This document shows, piece by piece, positions 17,210 to 32,577 of a stretch of DNA of 64,000 bases. This stretch comes from Microcystaceae cyanobacterium. Lineage in GTDB: Bacteria > Cyanobacteriota > Cyanobacteriia > Cyanobacteriales > Microcystaceae. The notes under the pieces were generated by a model. That model saw only the letters and a program-made list of their open reading frames with translations, was not told where the DNA came from and did not search any database. How positions within the stretch are numbered: the first letter of the stretch is position 1; every line of letters begins with the position of its first letter. A program made the position numbers and the translations under genes. Where the stretch lies: NCBI GenBank assembly GCA_041746575.1, contig JBGTGT010000113.1, forward strand, positions 26,017-90,016. The letters run 5' to 3'.

Positions 17210-17866
17210 ATGACTCAAGAATATATCAATCAGATTGACTTAGATCTCTATAATCATTCTAACTGCGAAGAATTGGCAACTCAAGCGGTTAAAGGAAGGC
17301 ATTTGAAGCTTTTATCCTCCTCTGTTAACGCCGCCCTTCAAATATGCCTATGTGAAGACCAATATCAGGCATGGTTACCGCAACCTCAGTTAAGCTATCT
17401 TCAACCCACGAATCAAACGTATCAACCCGTTTCCTTCACTCGTTCACAAATTGAAGCGAAAATTCCCGAAATTATTGCTTTTACTGAAGCGGCAAAGGCT
17501 GTTCCCAATCAATACTTATGGGGAGGCACGTTACCCCCCCATTATGACTGTTCGGGATTAATTCAGTCTGCCTTTGCCTCCGTTGGAATTTGGATTCCGA
17601 GAGATTCTTATCAACAGGAAGCATTTGTCCACAAAATCACACAAGAAGAGCTAGAAGACGGGGATTTGATTTTTTTTGGTAAAGAAAAAGTAGATCATGT
17701 TGCCCTGTATTTAGGACAAGGCCATTATATTCATAGTTCAGGCGCAAAAGAAGGACGTAATGGCATTGCGATCGATCCTTTATCCCCTCAAGGTGATCAG
17801 ATTAGTCAGCATTATTACCGTAAATTGCGGAGTTTTGGCCGAGTAGTGCAGAGTTTTCGCCAATAA
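17210..17866 (+). CDS. NlpC/P60 (C40) peptidoglycan peptidase
   Basis: YLWGG, DCSG catalytic Cys, GDLIFF, HVALYLG..YIHSSG. Confidence 0.92.
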   Translation: MTQEYINQIDLDLYNHSNCEELATQAVKGRHLKLLSSSVNAALQICLCEDQYQAWLPQPQLSYLQPTNQTYQPVSFTRSQIEAKIPEIIAFTEAAKAVPNQYLWGGTLPPHYDCSGLIQSAFASVGIWIPRDSYQQEAFVHKITQEELEDGDLIFFGKEKVDHVALYLGQGHYIHSSGAKEGRNGIAIDPLSPQGDQISQHYYRKLRSFGRVVQSFRQ

Positions 17867-17889
17867 TTTAAGATACCCGTTAATCCTAC

Positions 17890-18447
17890 CTACTTCTTTT
17901 CAGAAGGGATAGAGGTTAAATTCAACAAGAATAAAGCGGCTCTTTGCGCCGTTGCCTCAGATAATCGGATTTGTTTAAGGGTAACAAGACCATCTGTCCT
18001 AAAAGAATCTCGAACAAGGGCTTTTTCTCCCACATTAAAGCTTGTTTCGTAAAAAATAGTCTTAATTCCCGCCGATATGACCAACTTTAAACAACTCAAA
18101 CAAGGTTCGAGGGTGACATAAATACTTGCTCCTTGGGTACTAATACCATGTTTTGCCGCCTGTGCGATCGCATTTGCTTCTGCATGAACAGCGCGAGACG
18201 GTAACTGACTTGAAGCGTCGCAACTACTCAATCCCGGATAACAAAACCCTTGTGCCGTACAATGAACCGATCCCGACGGTGACCCATTATAGCCTGTCGC
18301 CAACACTTGACGATCTTTAACAATGACTGCGCCAACCGGAAAAGCTAAACACGTCGAACGAGTGGCCGCCAGTTTTGCCATCATCAAAAAATATTCATCC
18401 CAAGTTGGCCGTTGTTCTTCTAGATTCATTGAGGTATTCTTCAGCAT
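17890..18447 (-). CDS. dCMP deaminase family protein
   Basis: RPTWDEYFL, ATGYNG, HAEANAI and PCLSC zinc motifs. Confidence 0.9.
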   Translation of the reverse strand: MLKNTSMNLEEQRPTWDEYFLMMAKLAATRSTCLAFPVGAVIVKDRQVLATGYNGSPSGSVHCTAQGFCYPGLSSCDASSQLPSRAVHAEANAIAQAAKHGISTQGASIYVTLEPCLSCLKLVISAGIKTIFYETSFNVGEKALVRDSFRTDGLVTLKQIRLSEATAQRAALFLLNLTSIPSEKK

Positions 18448-18450
18448 TAT

Positions 18451-18891
18451 TTAGACTTTTACCTCAATTCCCGTTGATCCAAAGCCTCCTGCACCCCGTT
18501 GGGTGTCCTCAAGCTGGATTACGTCTTGAATTTCCACCCGAATAATCGGACAGATTACCAATTGGGCAATTCTCATCCCCTTATTGATTTTAAAGGTTTT
18601 TTGACCATGATTAATCAAGATCACGCCGATTTCTCCCCGATACCCTTCATCGATAGTGCCGGGGGTATTTAGCACCGTAATTTGATATTTTAAAGCCAAT
18701 CCACTGCGAGGACGAATTTGTGCCTCTGTTTGTGGGGGTAATTGAATAGCGATTCCCGTACGAATTAAGCGACTTTGGGCAGGTAAAAGCTCTTTATCTT
18801 CAATTGAGATCAAATCTAACCCAGAATCATCAGGATGCTCGTATTGAGGAATAACCGCATCGGGATTCAACTTGAGAATTTTGAGGTACAT
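18451..18891 (-). CDS. dut: Trimeric dUTP diphosphatase
   Basis: SGLDL, PRSGLA, GTIDEGYRGE, RIAQLV, RGAGGFGSTG (motifs I-V). Confidence 0.96.
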   Translation of the reverse strand: MYLKILKLNPDAVIPQYEHPDDSGLDLISIEDKELLPAQSRLIRTGIAIQLPPQTEAQIRPRSGLALKYQITVLNTPGTIDEGYRGEIGVILINHGQKTFKINKGMRIAQLVICPIIRVEIQDVIQLEDTQRGAGGFGSTGIEVKV

Positions 18892-18926
18892 TTTGAGTTT
18901 TAGATTTTAGATGATTATCCTACTGT

Positions 18927-19220
18927 TTACTGTAGTCTTGTGGCCATTGTCATTAGTCCCTGCTGTCCGAGTAATAATTCCCGTAACAAGGTAATCAAAG
19001 CAACCCAAAGAATCGGACTAATATCTACGCCGCCTAAAGGAGGAATCAGCTTACGCATCGGAATTAATAAGGGTTCTGTCGTAATAATCACTAAATTGAC
19101 AGGAAAACGCTGTAAATTAATCGGGGGATACCATGTCAAGACGATCCGAATAATCAAGAGAACTGTCATTAAGCTAAAGAGTAGCCCCAAAAAAAACATG
19201 GCCAAGGGAAGTAAGTTCAT
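18927..19220 (-). CDS. YggT family membrane protein
   Basis: RIVLTWYP, TEPLLIP and PPLGGVDISP. Confidence 0.9.
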   Translation of the reverse strand: MNLLPLAMFFLGLLFSLMTVLLIIRIVLTWYPPINLQRFPVNLVIITTEPLLIPMRKLIPPLGGVDISPILWVALITLLRELLLGQQGLMTMATRLQ

Positions 19221-19305
19221 CGAAAATTCAATTACAATTTGTTACAGAATCTAGATTTATTTTACTGTTATTGTGAATTTTGCGGGACAAGACGATGGGT
19301 TAACC

Positions 19306-23400: not shown

Positions 23401-24276
23401 TTACTGTTCATCGATACGATAGGCGCGAATCATCGCCGGTGTCCCTTGTTCGTCTCCTCCCATGCTTTGTACCTGTTTAAATAGGGAATTTGCTAATTTT
23501 AAACCGGGTAAGTCTAAATCTCCCATACTTTCCTGAACTAAGCGTAAATCCTTAAGAATGTGTTTAATCATAAAGCCGGGGGCAAAATCAGACGTCGCAA
23601 CTTTTTCCCCCAAATTCGCCAAAGCCCAAGAGCCGGCTGCCCCACTACCACAGACGTCTATCATGAGATTAGGATCAAGATTGAACTGTTGCGCCAGTTG
23701 CATTGCTTCACATAAGGCCACCATGTGCAGAGAACAGAGGACTTGATTACAGAGCTTGACCGCTTGTCCGCTACCTTGTGAGCCACAATAAACAATTTTC
23801 TTGCCCATTGCCCCTAATAAGGGTATAGCTTCTTCATAATCAGCTTTTTCGCCCCCCACCATGATGGTCAATGTGCCGTTTTGTGCGCCAATGTCTCCAC
23901 CAGAGATAGGAGCATCTAGAAAGCGCAATTTTTTATCTTTCAAAGAATCGGCAATTTCGAGAACGGCTGAAGTTCCAATGGTACTAAAATCAATGATTAA
24001 AGCACTAGGGTGCGCATGTTCTGCAATTCCGCCTTGACCCAAAATCACCCTTTTAACATCGTCAACATCACTGACGCAAGTACAAATAAGGGCAGTATCC
24101 TCCTTAATAGCTTCAGCAATAGAAGGGGCGAGATTGACGCCATTTTCGGCGGCTTGTTGTACCAGTGGACGGTTTGAGGTACGATTCCAAGCTGAAACGG
24201 GGTAACCTGCTTTAACGAGGTTTTGCGCCATAGGACTCCCCATTACGCCTAATCCGATAAAAGCAACATTTTTCAT
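23401..24276 (-). CDS. 3-hydroxyisobutyrate dehydrogenase / tartronate semialdehyde reductase family
   Basis: FIGLGVMG, DAPISGG, LTIMVGG, catalytic KLCNQ, KDLRL; GGAG SD before ATG at 24276. Confidence 0.9.
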   Translation of the reverse strand: MKNVAFIGLGVMGSPMAQNLVKAGYPVSAWNRTSNRPLVQQAAENGVNLAPSIAEAIKEDTALICTCVSDVDDVKRVILGQGGIAEHAHPSALIIDFSTIGTSAVLEIADSLKDKKLRFLDAPISGGDIGAQNGTLTIMVGGEKADYEEAIPLLGAMGKKIVYCGSQGSGQAVKLCNQVLCSLHMVALCEAMQLAQQFNLDPNLMIDVCGSGAAGSWALANLGEKVATSDFAPGFMIKHILKDLRLVQESMGDLDLPGLKLANSLFKQVQSMGGDEQGTPAMIRAYRIDEQ

Positions 24277-24345
24277 GCTGATTTCTCCCTTTAAATTCAT
24301 CATTTATCAAGATAACAGGGAAAGATGCTATGAAGTCCAGACTTA

Positions 24346-25995
24346 TTAAATAACTAGCAATAAATCAATAAATTGATGCCATGTTAAAGATTCATATCCT
24401 GTTTTATGCTTTAAAAACTTAATTTCTTGAGGGAATAAAGGAGGTTCTCCTACGCTCTGCAAAACCCGATTCATTTCTGCTGAATCGATTAACCCGTCTT
24501 CATTATCATCAATAGGAATAAAATAAGTCACCAATTCATTATAGTTAGTGGTTAAGCGTTGGTGTCGTAAGATTAATTCTCCAAATTCTTCAAAGTCAAT
24601 TTTCCCACTATTATCAAGATCAATACTGTTAAATAAGTCGTTAATTTCAGTATCTAGCAGCGTGTCATGGGCAAGTCTTAAGTAGGTTTTTAATTCTGAT
24701 AGTGAAATTTTTTCATTGCGATCACTATCAATAGCATTAAAAATATATCGGAGGTCTCCTTTAAGTTCAGCACTCGCTTTTTGAAAGAGCAAAAAAGTTG
24801 TTTTTTCTACTATCGCTTCTTGAAGTTGATAGCGAAAACTGACAATAATCTCTTTGGCAATTTGATAACGTTTATAATGTTCTTCAGGGCAAGTAATTGT
24901 ATAAAGTGCAACAGGAACTAGAGAAGGAATCGAATGTTTTACAATGAAAAAAGCACCCATCGTTGTTATCGTAAATGCTAAAGCTAATGGCGGTAACCCA
25001 AGGGGAGCAAAAACCAGAAGTAATTCCCAATGTACCCACGCACAAACGAAAGAGGCTAACAGTGCAATGCCAATACTGCGAGGTAGCGGCGCATAAAAAA
25101 TTCCTCCCAAGGCAATCGCTGTCAAAACTGAGTTCAATTCCCATAATCCTAGATAGACAGATTGTAAGTCAATACCCAGAGCGATCGCTACTATAGCACT
25201 TATCAAAGCCCCCATTAATCCCATTCCTGCACTAATAGGAGAACAGATAAAAACCCCCGTTAGAATTAATAAACTCGAAATCAGGTTTAGACTAAACAAG
25301 ATACTGCCAAAGCTTCTGGGAAAAGAGAATAATAATTGTAAGCCATCTAGCGAAGTAATCGGCGGGCTTATTGGGGGACTTCCTAACTCAAATAATGGCT
25401 GAGGAATATATAATATTGCGCCATAAAAAAGAAGCGTTATTAAATGAAATGGAATCCCTAAAATCGAAATTTTAAAATAGGTTGTAATCCAAACTCTCAA
25501 AGTATTCGCTAAAATAGTGGTTAATATCGCTAAAATAATAACGGCAAATGCCCATAGAGGACTACCGTTTCCATTGCCCCACAAGCTAAATGTTCCGACG
25601 GCTAATCCCCCTAAAGTTCCATTAAAGCCCCAAACGCCATTCCGAATAGCGTCTATATTGACTTTTAGGAAAATAGCGGTTATTGTTGATGCGATCGCTC
25701 CTAATAATCCGCAGAGTCCAACCCAAGGAGAGTGAATAAAAGTTGCCACTAAAAATATTAATCCAGTCAAGGGATTATTGCAAAAAATGACCTGACCTAT
25801 GCCGCGTAATGTAGCATTAATTCCGTCGAAAAAAGAGGATGGAACTAACTGCTCATTTAGCCATTGCATTGTACCTGTAATCGGCAGAAAGCGACGAGTT
25901 GAACTTTGAGCAGGAGCATCCAAAATTTTAGCCAGTAGCGCTTGCAAGGATAAAGATTGATGATGGGGGTTTTCTGTCGAATTTGATTCACTCAT
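24346..25995 (-). CDS. Urea transporter (UT) family channel fused to C-terminal EF-hand domain
   Basis: LRGIGQVIFCNNPLTG and GVWGFNGTL UT motifs, about 10 TM segments, ITCPE; EF loops DSDRNEKISLSE, DLDNSGKIDFEE, DDNEDGLIDSAE. Confidence 0.85.
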   Translation of the reverse strand: MSESNSTENPHHQSLSLQALLAKILDAPAQSSTRRFLPITGTMQWLNEQLVPSSFFDGINATLRGIGQVIFCNNPLTGLIFLVATFIHSPWVGLCGLLGAIASTITAIFLKVNIDAIRNGVWGFNGTLGGLAVGTFSLWGNGNGSPLWAFAVIILAILTTILANTLRVWITTYFKISILGIPFHLITLLFYGAILYIPQPLFELGSPPISPPITSLDGLQLLFSFPRSFGSILFSLNLISSLLILTGVFICSPISAGMGLMGALISAIVAIALGIDLQSVYLGLWELNSVLTAIALGGIFYAPLPRSIGIALLASFVCAWVHWELLLVFAPLGLPPLALAFTITTMGAFFIVKHSIPSLVPVALYTITCPEEHYKRYQIAKEIIVSFRYQLQEAIVEKTTFLLFQKASAELKGDLRYIFNAIDSDRNEKISLSELKTYLRLAHDTLLDTEINDLFNSIDLDNSGKIDFEEFGELILRHQRLTTNYNELVTYFIPIDDNEDGLIDSAEMNRVLQSVGEPPLFPQEIKFLKHKTGYESLTWHQFIDLLLVI

Positions 25996-26069
25996 TTTAA
26001 AATTAGAAATTGAGAATTAATTTAGTTTAGTGTATTATGAAAAGCTTGACTGAGTGCAGGTAATATGTT

Positions 26070-27788
26070 ATGAAACAAGACCAAAGATTATATGGCAAGA
26101 CAATGACTACTTTACCGTTATACCTCCCTAGACCTAGAGAAGCGGAAGGCACTTATTTAAGAATTGTGTCTATTAATGATGTTTACGAAATTAAAAACTA
26201 TCCTTATATTGAAACTGTAATTCAAGGACTGAAGCAAACAGCAGAAGATGCAGTGGTCATTGCTTCTATGAGTGGGGATTTTCTCTCTCCTTGCCTGCTA
26301 ACATCTTTGGATGGTGGGAAATCCATGTTGGATGTTCTTAATGTTGTCAATATCGATTATATTTGCTTTGGCAATCACGAATTTGATATCAATTTAGATG
26401 TCCTGCACGAACGGTTTAAGACCTATCGAGGAAAATGTCTAAACGGCAATATTCCTAACTTATCTATCGTTGATATAACAGGTAATCCTCTGCCCAAATA
26501 CGATCTTGTAAAAATAAAAAAACATCGAGTCGCCTTCGCCGGATTTTGTACCAACAATACTGATATTTTTCGACCGGGAACCAATTTAACAATTCTGCCA
26601 ATTTTTGAGGCTTTAAAACAAGTTTGGACTGAGTGTAAAAATGAAGCAACTATGTTAATTCCACTGACCCATCAAACCATTGCTGAAGATCGGGCATTAG
26701 CAATTCAAATTGCAGAAGATGACGAACTTCGAGGCCATATTCCGATTATTCTGGGTGGCCACGAACATGAAGTTTATATTGAAGAAATCGCCCAAAACTT
26801 TATTGTCAAAGCGGGCTCTGATGCTAAGAATGTTGTAGTGGCAGATGTGTGGTGGACAGCAGAGGATAAAGTACAAAGGGCGGTTCATTTATTACCAGCA
26901 AGTCACTTTGATGCCGATCCCCATGCTCAAATATTCGTCGAAAAAACGCAAAACTTTTTGGGTTCGTTAATAGATGTAGAGATTTTTCAAGTCAAAGAAA
27001 CTATGTCTTCTAAGAGAACACGCTTCCAGCCAGAAAAAGTTGCCTCAACCCTCTGTTCTTATATTAAAAAAAGTTTACAAAATATAAATATCGTTATATT
27101 GCAAGGAGGATGTGTCCGAGGCAATCGTGACTATCAAAAAGATTCATCATTTACCTATGGCGATTTGTTGGAAGAATTACCTTTTGATACGCAAATTGCC
27201 GTGATTAAAGTCCCCGGAAAAGTCTTGCAGGATGCCATCTCTTTAACACGAAGTACACCTGAGCAAGAAGCTCCCAACTTTTTACACGTAGATCTTGATA
27301 CCATTATTGAAGACTATCCCCGTTTAAAAATTGTCAGTATTAACCACGCACCTTTTGACCCTGAAAAGATATACAATGTTGCGATTTATCAATTTTTGCT
27401 GACAGGTTTAAACGAGATTAAGCCTCTGCTAGATTATGTCAATACCCAAGGCAGTATTCCCTCTTTAGAGCAGTGTATTCCGGGGAAAAACTTAATTCTA
27501 GAAGCTTGTATGAAAGATGCTTGGCGAACCCTCGTTAATTTTGAGGAATGGGATAGCAATGGAGATGGAAATATTTCTAAATCCGAACTCGAACAAGCTG
27601 TTAAAAAAGCCTTTGCCTTTCTAGATCAAAACCAAGATGGACACATTTCACCCACAGAGCTGCAAACTGCAATTATCGAAAAAACAGGGAATCGAGATCA
27701 TGGCTTAATTAATATGATGTTTGAGATGCTTGATGCCGATAACGATGGTATGGTGTCAATGGAAGAATTAGCATCTTTAGCGATATAA
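26070..27788 (+). CDS. 5'-nucleotidase-type metallophosphoesterase with C-terminal EF-hands, no signal peptide
   Basis: INDVY, GDFLSP, GNHEFD, LTH, GGHEH; 5'-NT C-domain (GGCVRG..YGDLLEELPF); EF loops DSNGDGNISKSE, DQNQDGHISPTE, DADNDGMVSMEE. Confidence 0.87.
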   Translation: MKQDQRLYGKTMTTLPLYLPRPREAEGTYLRIVSINDVYEIKNYPYIETVIQGLKQTAEDAVVIASMSGDFLSPCLLTSLDGGKSMLDVLNVVNIDYICFGNHEFDINLDVLHERFKTYRGKCLNGNIPNLSIVDITGNPLPKYDLVKIKKHRVAFAGFCTNNTDIFRPGTNLTILPIFEALKQVWTECKNEATMLIPLTHQTIAEDRALAIQIAEDDELRGHIPIILGGHEHEVYIEEIAQNFIVKAGSDAKNVVVADVWWTAEDKVQRAVHLLPASHFDADPHAQIFVEKTQNFLGSLIDVEIFQVKETMSSKRTRFQPEKVASTLCSYIKKSLQNINIVILQGGCVRGNRDYQKDSSFTYGDLLEELPFDTQIAVIKVPGKVLQDAISLTRSTPEQEAPNFLHVDLDTIIEDYPRLKIVSINHAPFDPEKIYNVAIYQFLLTGLNEIKPLLDYVNTQGSIPSLEQCIPGKNLILEACMKDAWRTLVNFEEWDSNGDGNISKSELEQAVKKAFAFLDQNQDGHISPTELQTAIIEKTGNRDHGLINMMFEMLDADNDGMVSMEELASLAI

Positions 27789-27849
27789 ACCGTGTGCCTG
27801 TTCAAAACACTCACTTGTGAGAACAAGGAAGCAACGAGATTTTTTAATG

Positions 27850-28839
27850 TTAGGAAACGAATTGTTTAAAGAGTTGTAAGAACTTTTGAGTATCAACATC
27901 AAAACAGGCATCAACATTAGGGGGGTTTGCCAATTCATCACGCCGATTGCGTAAATCTGCTAAAGATAGCCCTTTGGTAAAACGGCCTTCCGTTTCCACT
28001 ACCATATAAAGGGGTTCTGTTTTTACTAAGCTTGGATCGAGCACAACTGCTATCGCTAAAGGATCATGTAAATAACAGCCATAAAATCCCTCATTATCCC
28101 GATAAAATGCCATATAAATTTCTGTACAATCAGCAATAAACTGAGTGATTTTCGATGGAGAATTCCGTAAATTTTCCTCCACAACTTTACGATGTAAAGG
28201 TGCTTTTATCGCAACATCTAAACCCACCAACGTTAATGGAATACCCGATTCCATTACCAATTGTGCGGCATGGGGATCAACAAAAAAATTAAATTCGGCA
28301 GCAGCTGAAATATTGCCCGGAACATTTACGGCTCCTCCCATAATAATAATACGCCCAATTTTTTTCAGGACTTCGGCATCTTTTTGCAGCGCAGTGGCAA
28401 TATTTGTGAGGGGACCTAAAGCAACAATTGTTAAGTTTTTACCGTATTCCTGTGCCGCATTGAGAAGGATATCAATAGCACTTTCAGGAGAAAGTTTTAA
28501 GGCTAATTCAGGATAACGAGGAGAGCCATTTTTTTCTTGAAAACGGTGTAATTCTCCCAAACCATCCGCACCGTGAATTCCTGCCGCATCAAAGGGAGGA
28601 TTAACTAATGGTTTTTTACAGCCTTTTGCCACCGTTGGCATTTTATTAGGAGCGACAACACTAACCACACGTAAGACATTTTGAGCCGCTTGCTCAACAT
28701 TAATATTACCCGCCAAAACGGTGATCGCTTTCAGATCAATTTGTGGTGAATTTAAGGCCATAATCAAGGCTAAAGCATCATCTACTCCGCCATCAGTGTC
28801 AATAATTATAGGGATCGAGGGATTGGGTAAACTCGCCAT
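27850..28839 (-). CDS. Inosine/uridine-preferring nucleoside hydrolase
   Basis: DTDGGVDD Ca2+-binding signature, HGADGLG, GPLTN, MGG, AEFNFFVDP, LHDP. Confidence 0.93.
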   Translation of the reverse strand: MASLPNPSIPIIIDTDGGVDDALALIMALNSPQIDLKAITVLAGNINVEQAAQNVLRVVSVVAPNKMPTVAKGCKKPLVNPPFDAAGIHGADGLGELHRFQEKNGSPRYPELALKLSPESAIDILLNAAQEYGKNLTIVALGPLTNIATALQKDAEVLKKIGRIIIMGGAVNVPGNISAAAEFNFFVDPHAAQLVMESGIPLTLVGLDVAIKAPLHRKVVEENLRNSPSKITQFIADCTEIYMAFYRDNEGFYGCYLHDPLAIAVVLDPSLVKTEPLYMVVETEGRFTKGLSLADLRNRRDELANPPNVDACFDVDTQKFLQLFKQFVS

Positions 28840-29044
28840 AGTACTCAAAATTTCCTAAAATCTGCTGTATCTGCTTTAATAGAAATATTAATAATTTGAA
28901 GTTTACCATTCAATGGATAGCTAACTCGCCAGCGTGCAATTTTAGGCAGAGTGCTCACCAATTTGTCGTTGGACTCAATCAACTGCCATCGATTCGAGAA
29001 TAGTCCTTAAATCTTGACATTCACACCCGTATTCCCTTAGAGCC

Positions 29045-29451: not shown

Positions 29452-31608
29452 ATGAAGGAGTTTGAGAAGTCCATCTCTTTTGACGGGAGAGATATTCGGC
29501 TAAAGATCGGAGCATTTGCCCCCCAAGCCGGGGGAAGCGTTCTGATTCAGTCTGGAGACACCGCAGTTTTAGTAACTGCAACCCGTGCAACCGCCAGAGA
29601 AGGCATTGATTTTTTGCCCCTAACGGCAGATTATGAAGAACGTCTGTATGCAGCAGGACGTATTCCAGGTGGATTCTTACGTAGAGAAGGCAGACCGCCC
29701 GAAAGAGCCGTTTTAATCAGTCGTTTAATTGATCGCCCCCTCCGTCCCCTTTTTCCCCAATGGTTACGGGATGATCTTCAAGTAGTAGCGACAACTTTAT
29801 CCATGGATGAAGAAGTCCCCCCAGATGTCTTAGCGGTAACGGGGGCATCTGTAGCGGTTTTGTTGGCAAAAATCCCCTTTTATGGGCCGATGGCTGCTGT
29901 CAGAGTGGGATTAGTCGGGGATGATTTCATTATTAACCCCACTTACCGAGAAATTAACATTGGCGATCTCGATTTAGTGGTGGCCGGCAGTCCCAATGGG
30001 GTGGTGATGGTTGAGGCGGGTGCCAATCAGTTGCCCGAACAGGATATCATCGAAGCGATCGATTTTGGTTATGAGGCAGTGCGGGATCTCATCCAAGCGC
30101 AACACGATGTAATTAAAGAATTAGGCATTGAAATTGTCATCGAAGAACCGCCGTCGGTTGATGAAATGCTTGAACAATTTGTCAGCGAAAAAGCGACTCC
30201 TGCGGTCAAAAAAATCCTCTTACAGTACGATTTAACCAAGCAAGGTCGAGATGAAGCCTTAGATGTTGTTAAAGCTGAAGTTGAAGAAGCGATCGCTGCT
30301 TTGCCTGAAGATGACCCCATTAAGGCAACTACTAGCGAAAATGGCAAAGCATTAGGCAATACTTACAAGGGTTTGACCAAAAAACTGATGCGGACGCAGA
30401 TTGTCGAAGAAGGGGTGCGGGTGGATGGTCGTCAACTCGACGAAGTTCGTCCGATTTCTTGTGAGGTCTCCCTGTTACCGCGACGGGTGCATGGCAGTGC
30501 CTTATTCAATCGGGGATTAACCCAAGTGCTGTCTTTAACGACCCTCGGCACCACAGGAGACGCTCAAGACTTAGCCGATGATCTCCATCCGGGGGACGAA
30601 AAACGCTATCTCCATCACTATAATTTCCCGCCTTATTCTGTCAGAGAAACCCGTCCCCTCCGTCCTCCCGGACGACGAGAAATTGGGCATGGTGCCTTAG
30701 CAGAACGGGCGATTTTACCCGTTTTACCCTCTCAAGAAGAGTTTCCCTATGTGGTGCGGGTGGTTTCAGAAGTCCTCTCTTCCAACGGCTCAACGTCAAT
30801 GGGATCAGTCTGTGGTTCTACCTTATCCCTGATGGATGCAGGCGTTCCTTTGTTAAAGCCCGTTAGTGGAGCGGCTATGGGACTAATCAAAGAAGGCGAA
30901 GAGGTGCGAATTCTCACGGATATTCAAGGTATTGAAGATTTCTTAGGGGATATGGACTTTAAGGTCGCTGGAACCGATGTGGGCATTACGGCGTTGCAAA
31001 TGGACATGAAAATTACGGGATTGTCCATGAATACGATTGCTAAAGCCATTCAGCAAGCCCGTCCGGCTCGTTTGCACATCCTTGAGAAGATGTTAGCGAC
31101 ACTTGAGAAACCCCGCCCTGAATTGTCGCCGTTTGCCCCCCGTCTGATGACGACCAAAATTGATCCTGATATGATTGGTTTAGTCATTGGTCCCGGTGGT
31201 AAAACGATCAAAGGCATTACGGAGCAAACCAACTGTAAAATCGACATTGCTGATGATGGAACGGTGACGATCGCCGCAACGGATTCAGAAAACGCTAAAC
31301 GTGCCAAACAGATTATCTACAATATGACCCGCAAACTCTCAGAAGGGGAAGTTTATTTGGGTAAAGTCACCCGCATTATTCAGATTGGGGCATTTGTCGA
31401 AATTTTACCCGGCAAAGAGGGCATGATTCATATTTCCCAATTGGCCGAAGGCCGAGTCGGTAAAGTGGAGGATGAACTGGCCGTCGGGGATGAAGTAATC
31501 GTCAAAGTTCGTGAAATTGACGGAAAAGGACGGTTAAATCTAACCCGTTTGGGAATCCATCCCGATGAAGCCGCTCAAGCACGCCGTGCGGCATCTAACC
31601 TTTACTGA
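29452..31608 (+). CDS. pnp: Polyribonucleotide nucleotidyltransferase
   Basis: Two RNase PH domains ([35 protein letters not shown]), KH (IGPGGKTIK) and S1. Confidence 0.98.
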
Positions 31609-31692
31609 TCTTTGCAATGGGGTAAAGTACAAAGCTTCTAAACCTTGAGAATCTAACCCCTAACTTCTCAAACTTGAAACCGAAAAAAGACC

Positions 31693-32577
31693 ATGAGCAA
31701 TGTAATTGGGATTGATTTGGGAGGAACGGCCATTAAATTTGGCCGTTTTTTGCGAAATGGCAACTGTACAGCGACTTTAACCCTACCCACTCCCCAACCC
31801 TCTACCCCCGAAGCCGTCAGAGAAACCTTAATAGCAGGGATTGATCAACTCAATCTTGACCAGCCATCTTGCGCCATTGGTTTAGGAACACCAGGGCCGG
31901 TAGATGCTACAGGACGTATTGCCAAGGTTGCCATTAATTTAACGGGATGGCACGATATTCCCTTAGCAAATTGGTTGGAAACAGCGACAAAATTACCAAC
32001 TGTTTTGGCCAATGATGCTAATTGTGCCGGATTGGGAGAAGCTTGGTTAGGAGCAGGGAAAGGGTATAATGACCTTATTTTGTTGACGTTAGGAACGGGG
32101 GTTGGAGGCGCAATTATCCTGAATGGTCAATTATTTACAGGTCATCAAGGGGCGGCAGGAGAATTGGGCTTAATTACGCTGAACCCAGAGGGCGCACCCT
32201 GTAATAGTGGGAATCAAGGTTCATTAGAGCAGTATTGTTCGATTCAAGCGATTAAGCAACTAACAGGACGAGATCCTGCTGAATTAGGCAAACTAGCTAA
32301 GGCAGGTGACCCCACGGCTTTGGGTTTTTGGCGGGAATATGGTCAATTTTTAGGGATTGGCTTAACCAGTTTAATTTATGTGTTAACGCCTCAGGCGGTA
32401 ATTATTGGAGGCGGCATCAGTGCTAGTGCCGATTATTTTTTACCCGCCACCCGTGCGGAAATCACTCAGCGCGTGTTACCGAGTTCTCGGCAGGGGTTGG
32501 TTATTTTAAGAGCAGCCTTAGGCAATCAAGCGGGAATGGTGGGGGCGGCAAAATTAGCATGGTCTAAGATGAATTAA
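31693..32577 (+). CDS. ROK family sugar kinase (glucokinase-like)
   Basis: GIDLGGT, ANDANCA.LGE, LGTGVGG, AGELG, C.SGN.GSLE. Confidence 0.9.
   Translation: MSNVIGIDLGGTAIKFGRFLRNGNCTATLTLPTPQPSTPEAVRETLIAGIDQLNLDQPSCAIGLGTPGPVDATGRIAKVAINLTGWHDIPLANWLETATKLPTVLANDANCAGLGEAWLGAGKGYNDLILLTLGTGVGGAIILNGQLFTGHQGAAGELGLITLNPEGAPCNSGNQGSLEQYCSIQAIKQLTGRDPAELGKLAKAGDPTALGFWREYGQFLGIGLTSLIYVLTPQAVIIGGGISASADYFLPATRAEITQRVLPSSRQGLVILRAALGNQAGMVGAAKLAWSKMN

Follow-up and report, generated by a model that had tools for sequence, protein, structure and literature searches.

A calmodulin-tailed channel of the urea transporter fold in a cyanobacterium belongs to a branch with both filter threonines replaced and nucleoside-breakdown genes as neighbours

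A 64,000 nt stretch of DNA from a Microcystaceae cyanobacterium (contig JBGTGT010000113.1, positions 26,017 to 90,016; hereafter the window) carries a gene whose product, P0001, joins a urea transporter (UT) channel to a calmodulin-like EF-hand tail. Both threonines of the middle urea filter are replaced in P0001, by Gly and Ala, as they are in a branch of 57 related proteins (the Gly/Ala branch, or clade B). The genes of this branch are found beside nucleoside-breakdown genes, whereas their relatives that keep both threonines are found beside arginase or urease genes. From these sequences we infer substrate, direction and Ca2+ gating as follows: the Gly/Ala channel would be a passive, Ca2+-modulated pore for the free bases that a cytosolic nucleotidase and hydrolase produce, and the gradient would set the direction of flow. 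This reading is put forward tentatively, at somewhat less than even confidence.

Results

The channel gene and its product

The gene and the parts of its product that are discussed below lie at the following window positions.

24346..25995, minus strand: UT-fold channel with calmodulin-like domain, P0001, 549 aa, member of the Gly/Ala-filter branch (profile matches, AlphaFold2, Foldseek, tree)
25918..25947, minus strand: N-terminal amphipathic helix, residues 17-26 (LHELISRIL-like), kept in the Gly/Ala branch; may be the helix on which the EF lobes dock
24949..25821, minus strand: UT membrane domain, residues 59-349 (Pfam PF03253, E 1.3e-65; Foldseek to UT-A, UT-B and dvUT)
24811..24927, minus strand: loop 357-369 and EF-bearing helix 370-395 (model; alignment to UT-A2)
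24694..24729, minus strand: EF loop 1, residues 423-434
24586..24621, minus strand: EF loop 2, residues 459-470
24475..24510, minus strand: EF loop 3, residues 496-507

P0001 is encoded by a single stop-free open reading frame (ORF) of 549 codons and is a UT (SLC14/PF03253) by both profile and fold. The Pfam UT model matches it at 221.9 bits against a gathering score of 25, covering model positions 1-288 of 292, and its best matches among solved sequences are the UTs of mammals, fish and Desulfovibrio, followed by calmodulins. The AlphaFold2 model (74-row alignment; mean predicted local distance difference test score, pLDDT, 85.5) has the ten-helix, two-repeat UT fold with its pore helices, and the top 17 Foldseek matches listed are all UTs (template modelling score to the target 0.82-0.90), with calmodulins next. 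No Pfam or NCBIfam match to an NCS1/NCS2 nucleobase transporter was found in P0001, and the score against the Yut equivalog TIGR03441 was 159.6, under the cut-off of 274.6. P0001 would be expected to form a homotrimer. An earlier note on this DNA had described a UT channel fused to a calmodulin-like domain with three EF loops and a degenerate fourth, and profiles and structure prediction both bear this out; the four motifs that it quoted are also present (GIGQVIF at residue 65, GVWGFNG at 120, SFGSILF at 228 and GLWELNS at 283).

The fusion is not unique to P0001. Among 8000 candidates scored, 96 matches near the query length were obtained, and 78 of these carry both UT and EF-hand Pfam labels (UT-EF proteins), those that are named coming from cyanobacteria and Enhygromyxa. 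The spread across genomes is patchy, with UT-EF proteins in 17 of the 401 genomes sampled from the phylum (including two short fragments and one distant match at 27%) and in 19 of 401 sampled from the class. Cluster representatives also include longer proteins with UT and EF-hand domains, and Rhodelphis marinus is the source of one of these.

Pfam EF-hand models match residues 414-475 of P0001 with E-values down to 3.8e-15. The hands are paired as in calmodulin, with ligands at positions 1, 3, 5, 9 and 12; loops 1 to 3 have D at position 1, D/N at 3, N/S/D at 5 and E at 12, and position 6 of loop 1 is E, not G. A fourth helix-loop-helix at approximately 522-548 in the model has no acidic ligands and is a degenerate hand. 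All 54 of the 54 branch members with sequence there have D1 and E12 in each of the three loops, and these residues are nearly as conserved outside the branch. The tail very probably binds Ca2+.

In human UT-A2, residues L363 and V366 line a pocket that takes up inhibitors on the intracellular side, at the inner mouth of the pore, as described in the text of PMC11589576. Loop 357-369 of P0001 aligns with the cytoplasmic loop that holds these two residues, and the EF tail hangs from helix 370-395 right behind it, so the tail would be cytoplasmic and would have a mechanical path to the pore mouth. By analogy with calmodulin-regulated channels, the EF lobes could grip the N-terminal helix 17-26, which has a pLDDT of about 56-64 in the model. 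The earlier note spoke of a directly Ca2+-gated channel; this arrangement may permit such gating, and we put the chances that Ca2+ binding alters flux at about even.

Both filter threonines are replaced throughout the branch

The filter positions of P0001 that differ from characterised UTs are as follows.

25456..25458, minus strand: G180, corresponding to UT-A2 T176 and bovine UT-B T172, middle filter, repeat 1 (alignment to 8blo_A and 4ezc_A)
24982..24984, minus strand: A338, corresponding to UT-A2 T338 and UT-B T334, middle filter, repeat 2 (alignment)
25303..25305, minus strand: S231, corresponding to UT-A2 Q231, outer site; common only to the closest relatives (3/57)
25135..25140, minus strand: E286-L287, corresponding to G286-F287, outer site; private to P0001 (1/57); present in the contigs of runs X1-X3

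Residues were mapped by alignment to the second half of 8blo_A, for which an offset of 523 gives human UT-A2 numbering, and to 4ezc_A for bovine UT-B. The offset was checked on UT-A2 Q67, Y123, T176, Q231, F287, C337, T338, F341, L363 and V366, in the numbering of PMC11589576. In the text of that paper the urea recognition motif comprises Q67, V68, Y123 and T176 in one repeat and Q231, V/I232, F/Y287 and T338 in the other, and the UT-A2 mutants Q67A, T176A, Q231A and T338A each impair urea permeation; Thr-to-Val mutants described in PMC12171576 drop to control levels for urea, water and NH3. At these sites P0001 has Q68, V69, F124 and G180, followed by S231, I232, L287 and A338, so that four of the eight are lost. 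The inner pocket is kept or conservatively changed except for the threonine, and the outer pocket differs from the motif at Q231, F/Y287 and T338.

The two middle-filter changes are features of the branch. Column 180 is Gly in 54, Ala in two and Val in one of the 57 members and Thr in 84 of the 86 sequences outside it; column 338 is Ala in 36, Ser in 19 and Gly in one of the 56 members with a residue there and Thr in 77 of 85 outside. When all 537 columns are ranked by how well they set the branch apart from other UT-EF proteins, these two come first and third and pore columns 234 and 124 fourth and eleventh, ranks which are descriptive and not p-values and which only conserved columns can attain. 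Residues Q68, F71, L128, F183, L291 and F341 are conserved across the branch, and together with Gly 180 in 54 of 57 members this looks like selection and not decay. The remaining changes in P0001 are of a different kind, since Q231 is present in 50 of the 57 members, G286 in 52 and Tyr, Phe or Trp at position 287 in 56; S231 is common to P0001 and two close relatives, and E286 and L287 are its own.

Two claims of the earlier note fail on these residues. It had taken the first repeat as canonical, and the middle-filter Thr of that repeat is G180; it had read an asymmetric pore signature, and the change seen across the branch is symmetric (G180 and A338), the repeat 2 changes being private to P0001 or found in its two closest relatives. 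Its suggestion of altered selectivity, nucleobases included, is plausible from the filter change, although the asymmetry argument behind it falls.

Contigs from sequencing runs X1, X2 and X3 span the channel gene with zero differing letters, but the three runs come from a single study that is possibly the window's own source, so the match is not independent support. An assembly error at E286/L287 was considered and is not supported, both residues being present in these contigs of one study, and an assembly slip in the channel gene is unlikely.

In a tree of 186 UT domains, all Gly-first proteins of cyanobacterial type except P0053 form one branch (SH support 0.993), which is nested inside the Thr/Thr UT-EF group. 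Trees built from the EF region only and from full-length sequences split the branch. In a topology test, the tree in which 15 sampled members were kept together beat the free search (p-AU, from the approximately unbiased (AU) test, 0.988), and the one-clade tree was not rejected. P0053 (Gly/Ser, within the Thr/Thr group) may represent a second origin; in a search for its contig, 61 genomes were covered and five matched, none of them being P0053, and the four full-length ones aligned as Thr/Thr.

When more distant UT stretches were added to P0001, 110 of the 136 sequences with both columns present were Thr/Thr and three were Gly-first. Besides P0053, both filter threonines are changed in P0080 from Gymnodinium smaydae (G/G), and in P0115 from Rhodelphis marinus (S/Q) and P0118 (L/A), the latter two having EF-hands. 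The first filter Thr is also missing from UT-M23 peptidase fusions (P0081, P0082, P0085-P0088, P0091, P0094-P0096), which are S/A, S/T or S/S.

Gene neighbourhood differs with filter type

Loci were taken from named genome contigs, metagenomes (the best 80 of 225 confirmed) and sampled genomes. The 113 UT frames were reduced to 73 in which neither filter column is missing and two or more EF loops are present, and then to 70 at 97% identity, which excluded 40 frames lacking a filter column or two EF loops (fragments and tail-less UTs) and three near-duplicates; small loci repeating larger fetched regions and five loci repeating others were also left out of the counts. Neighbours were scored within a radius of 3.5 kb, and some of the loci scored as having neither partner class are short contigs.

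Thr-first channels lie beside arginase or urease at 38 of 45 loci, with seven having neither. The 24 Gly/Ala-first loci comprise 19 beside a nucleoside hydrolase or 5'-nucleotidase, two with guanine deaminase and three with neither, and the one His-first locus has neither partner class. Not one crossover between filter type and partner class was seen among the 70 loci, and after de-duplication at 80% the split was 25 against 12. In one genome, G188, the two types occur at a distance of approximately 7 kb, and each has separate partner genes. At this locus (L032; G188:C59:21514-23121 and 30273-31898) the Thr/Thr gene with arginase is intact and the Gly/Ser gene with nucleoside hydrolase and nucleotidase is broken.

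In the window two partner genes lie next to the channel gene, which forms a three-gene cassette with them.

26070..27788, plus strand: 5'-nucleotidase-like, Metallophos and 5_nucleotid_C domains with three C-terminal EF loops; divergent from the channel (Pfam)
27850..28848, minus strand: inosine-uridine nucleoside hydrolase, convergent on the nucleotidase (IU_nuc_hydro, E 9e-94; best solved match RihA)

These three genes are arranged in the same way in G026, the closest relative, whose genome is 100% complete and whose channel is 72% identical. Close orthologues of the nucleotidase adjoin the channel in loci L001, L008, L030, L062 and L145-L147, and the partner nucleotidases, read from their likely starts, lack any hydrophobic stretch resembling a signal. 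The partner slots are occupied by one of two nucleotidases and one of two hydrolases, depending on the lineage, which links the channel to an activity and not to one passenger gene. EF-hands are frequent in the partner enzymes as well but are absent from one of the two types of nucleotidase, so the channel tail need not serve assembly.

A tartronate-semialdehyde-reductase-like gene at 23401-24303 was considered as a further member and rejected, as the channel of the closest cassette (L030) does not have it as a neighbour. Approximately 5.5 kb from the cassette (window 17890-18891) lie two genes which, on their motifs, are presumably deaminase-like and dUTPase-like.

The window at 24001-28000 has a GC content of 0.38-0.39 against 0.42-0.44 in adjacent bins; only two of 20 genomes of the same family have a homologue, at 43-45% identity, and G026, from a different family, carries the same cassette at 72-83% identity. 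Together these suggest that the cassette was acquired by horizontal transfer. A search for plasmid carriage matched only two distant UTs.

Among the Thr-type loci, L204 serves as a control in which the channel is directly before ureA, with ureB and ureG behind. Thr/Thr UT-EF genes upstream of urease genes were seen at L204:1459-4619, L206 and L057:2500-6789. At L002:4421-5953, L003:4463-5968, L007:4447-5988, L032:4351-5874 and L040:5424-6905 a fusion of EF-hands and arginase is directly upstream of the Thr/Thr channel; these fusions score 218 bits against TIGR01229, where the cut-off is 227.6, and their best solved matches are true arginases. A frame of 465-480 aa with a weak class-I glutamine amidotransferase match and no NCBIfam match recurs near them (L006:2982-4421, L007:3036-4436, L032:1647-3041). 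In L041:3585-8760 and L042:3302-8544, from genomes of 2.7-2.9 Mb, the arginase-channel pair is preceded by what is presumably, on its motifs, a glutamine-synthetase-like gene. At L035:298-13121 a Gly/Ser channel has a guanine deaminase group on one side and an OprB/BMP-ABC group on the other, the latter with a biuret amidohydrolase (421.6 bits, over the cut-off) and a C-terminal piece of allophanate hydrolase.

Upstream of the channel genes, an NtcA pattern was found at none of 24 Gly/Ala loci (3.1 expected) and at one of 35 Thr loci (3.7 expected), a Pho-box pattern was not found at the channel loci, and a scan for promoters and terminators gave no excess over shuffled sequences.

Discussion

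Proposed function

In the function proposed for the Gly/Ala channel, a cytosolic 5'-nucleotidase, EF-tailed in the window, would convert nucleotides to nucleosides and phosphate, and the nucleoside hydrolase would then release ribose, recyclable by ribokinase. The filter of Gly with Ala or Ser would pass the flat, ureide-like free base down its gradient. By size, uracil and cytosine would be the likeliest bases, with purines possible, and they could leave as overflow or enter when bases are present outside. Ca2+ on the three EF loops would modulate the flux through the helix and loop linking the tail to the inner pore mouth. Ribokinase is present over the cut-off in all five other branch genomes and OHCU (2-oxo-4-hydroxy-4-carboxy-5-ureidoimidazoline) decarboxylase in one of the five, a pattern that fits keeping ribose and phosphate while being unable to burn the bases. 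Release of such compounds is described, in papers that do not concern the Gly/Ala channel, for Prochlorococcus, which exudes thymidine, adenine and guanine, the purines more so under phosphorus limitation (text of bioRxiv 2024.02.09.579562), and nucleosides and nucleobases are among the cross-fed metabolites of biocrust (text of PMC4595634).

A stronger claim, that the Gly/Ala branch is the first nucleobase channel of UT fold and acts with the nucleotidase and hydrolase as a Ca2+-gated release (or uptake) valve, we consider rather unlikely. If it were true, a calcium signal would switch on the salvage of phosphate and ribose from nucleotides while bases are dumped, and a pore for urea would have become one for nucleobases through two filter residues, as may have happened again in P0053 and in the dinoflagellate UT P0080.

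A number of observations count against a pore for bases. The UT slot, lined by Phe, may not be wide enough to admit a ring, and Ser at position 338 in 19 of 56 members keeps the hydroxyl. The branch probably has a single evolutionary origin: with the pore columns removed, 56 of the 57 members still group (0.971), and joining P0053 to the branch was not rejected (AU p 0.06). The split of 38 against 21 neighbours then counts as approximately one event and not 59. Both guanine-deaminase cases are several genes from the channel. Orthologues of the hydrolase at 73-75% identity occur in G032 and G050 (L197:7084-8184 and L198:209-2866), where no UT-EF protein was found; in G050 the hydrolase is alongside a nucleotidase at a contig end. 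A channel fused to a nucleotidase or hydrolase was found neither in 8000 longer candidates, in what was a weak search, nor in the 96 near-length matches. Urease is present in four of the five branch genomes, and the window genome has urease, OHCU decarboxylase, PuuE, a uracil phosphoribosyltransferase and an NCS2 permease (xanthine/uracil family, PF00860) but no ribokinase over the cut-off.

Some of these points suit a channel that still conducts urea, with NH3 and water, its Gly/Ala filter retuning the conductance or making it Ca2+-dependent; we think this improbable, though it is the alternative to be taken most seriously. The nucleoside-breakdown neighbours would then be accounted for by purine breakdown, which ends in urea and ammonia, and the window genome also holds guanine deaminase, xanthine dehydrogenase-like and HIU (5-hydroxyisourate) hydrolase-like genes alongside its OHCU decarboxylase, PuuE and urease. 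The UT fold is retained, as are Q68, V69 and F71 in P0001 and Q231 in most of the branch, and sources label these proteins 'urea transporter', by family and not by test. Against urea, loss of either threonine impairs its flux in mammalian UTs, going by the text of PMC12171576 and PMC11589576, and arginase or urease neighbours are found at none of the 24 Gly/Ala loci against 38 of 45 Thr loci. In the complete G026 genome neither urease nor OHCU decarboxylase was matched, a result difficult to reconcile with a urea channel, and four of the five branch genomes are without the decarboxylase. In the window genome no match to PF04115 (ureidoglycolate lyase) was found, a motif scan indicates that UrtA-type uptake is also present, and a tblastn search for an EF-hand arginase did not find one, the long matches being to distant ureohydrolases at 24-28%. 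If urea does still pass, the accepted role of the filter threonines would need revising.

It is doubtful in a greater degree that the protein does not conduct, either because P0001 is degenerating (E286, L287, S231, G167R) or because the branch is a Ca2+-dependent membrane scaffold or sensor for both enzymes. P0001, and no other member, has Glu for the conserved Gly beside the outer site and has lost the outer aromatic; no ribokinase over the cut-off is present in its genome, unlike the other five, and broken copies exist within the branch (a second copy in G188 with three stops, fragments in G356 and G396, and L001). The reading frame of P0001 is nonetheless intact, and P0001 departs at nine of 141 branch-conserved columns, where two sisters depart at 12 and 14 and the branch median is two; the conservation of F71, L128, F183, L291, F341 and Gly 180 across the branch is as in a working pore. 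The least probable alternative, by our estimate, is that a widened pore passes an intact nucleoside, ribose or one of the larger ureides (allantoin, biuret), which draws on the same neighbourhood evidence as a base pore, on the window genome, where ribose would be a dead end, and on the BMP-type ABC system and biuret amidohydrolase near the channel of L035, but meets ribokinase in all five other genomes, a flat, aromatic-lined slot that suits planar solutes and not sugars, and a biuret context in one genome only.

Further EF-hand frames were seen in the window genome (G000). A calmodulin-like ORF with three EF loops at G000:C110:16985-17680 overlaps a 600-codon frame at 17494-19293, and the two are possibly one split fusion; a 193-codon frame with two EF loops lies at G000:C46:46661-47239; and a protein with two loops at G000:C85:25384-26562 is, judging by its sequence, presumably transaldolase-like.

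Comparison with known systems

The UT channels in the papers cited here pass urea, water and ammonia, and their two filter threonines are regarded there as indispensable. The Gly/Ala branch, 57 natural sequences with both threonines swapped and with new partners, makes a ready-made pair with the Thr/Thr proteins beside arginase or urease for the study of UT selectivity, by two point mutations in each direction. If nucleobases pass, the channel would be a route for the release of purines and pyrimidines by cyanobacteria, feeding other microbes, and if the tail gates the channel it would be a direct effector of bacterial Ca2+ signalling.

With the characterised UT/SLC14 proteins (human UT-A2, UT-A3 and UT-B, bovine UT-B and the Desulfovibrio vulgaris UT; 8xd7, 8xde, 8blo, 4ezc and 3k3f) P0001 shares the fold, the two inverted repeats and the pore helices, and it retains Q68, V69, F71, F124 and the Leu and Phe filter pairs. 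It differs from them in that both filter threonines are replaced, together with Q231 and F287, and in its calmodulin-like tail, as the 12 solved UT sequences match none of it beyond query residue 385.

That UTs can carry EF-hands and are perhaps regulated by Ca2+ has already been put forward on computational grounds. In Cagliani et al. 2026 (PMC12998343; Fig. 1A, Table S3) protist and bacterial UTs are described as bearing EF-hand domains and control by Ca2+ is suggested; the proteins, from bacteria and stramenopiles, have the same architecture of a UT with C-terminal EF-hands. The main text of that paper holds no word starting cyanobacter-, arginase, nucleos- or neighbo-, its section on UT-EF proteins makes no subfamily split and reports no filter loss, and rows of Table S3 are Pfam counts by taxon. 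No paper on the Gly/Ala branch or on a link to nucleoside breakdown was found in the literature searched, which covered listings and the starts of abstracts, without subscription journals, bioRxiv supplements or Fig. S1 of PMC12998343.

A further comparison is the Thr/Thr UT-EF branch, which shares the architecture and the EF ligands, is 31-49% identical and often has an EF-handed partner enzyme. Unlike the Gly/Ala branch it keeps the urea filter and has a neighbour that produces or consumes urea, and it is a natural control. The Yut-type urea transporter (TIGR03441) has a UT-family match in common with P0001 but is without the EF tail. NCS2 and NCS1 nucleobase permeases are ion-coupled carriers and not channels; with these (PF00860 and relatives) the Gly/Ala channel would have its proposed class of solute in common, on an unrelated fold.

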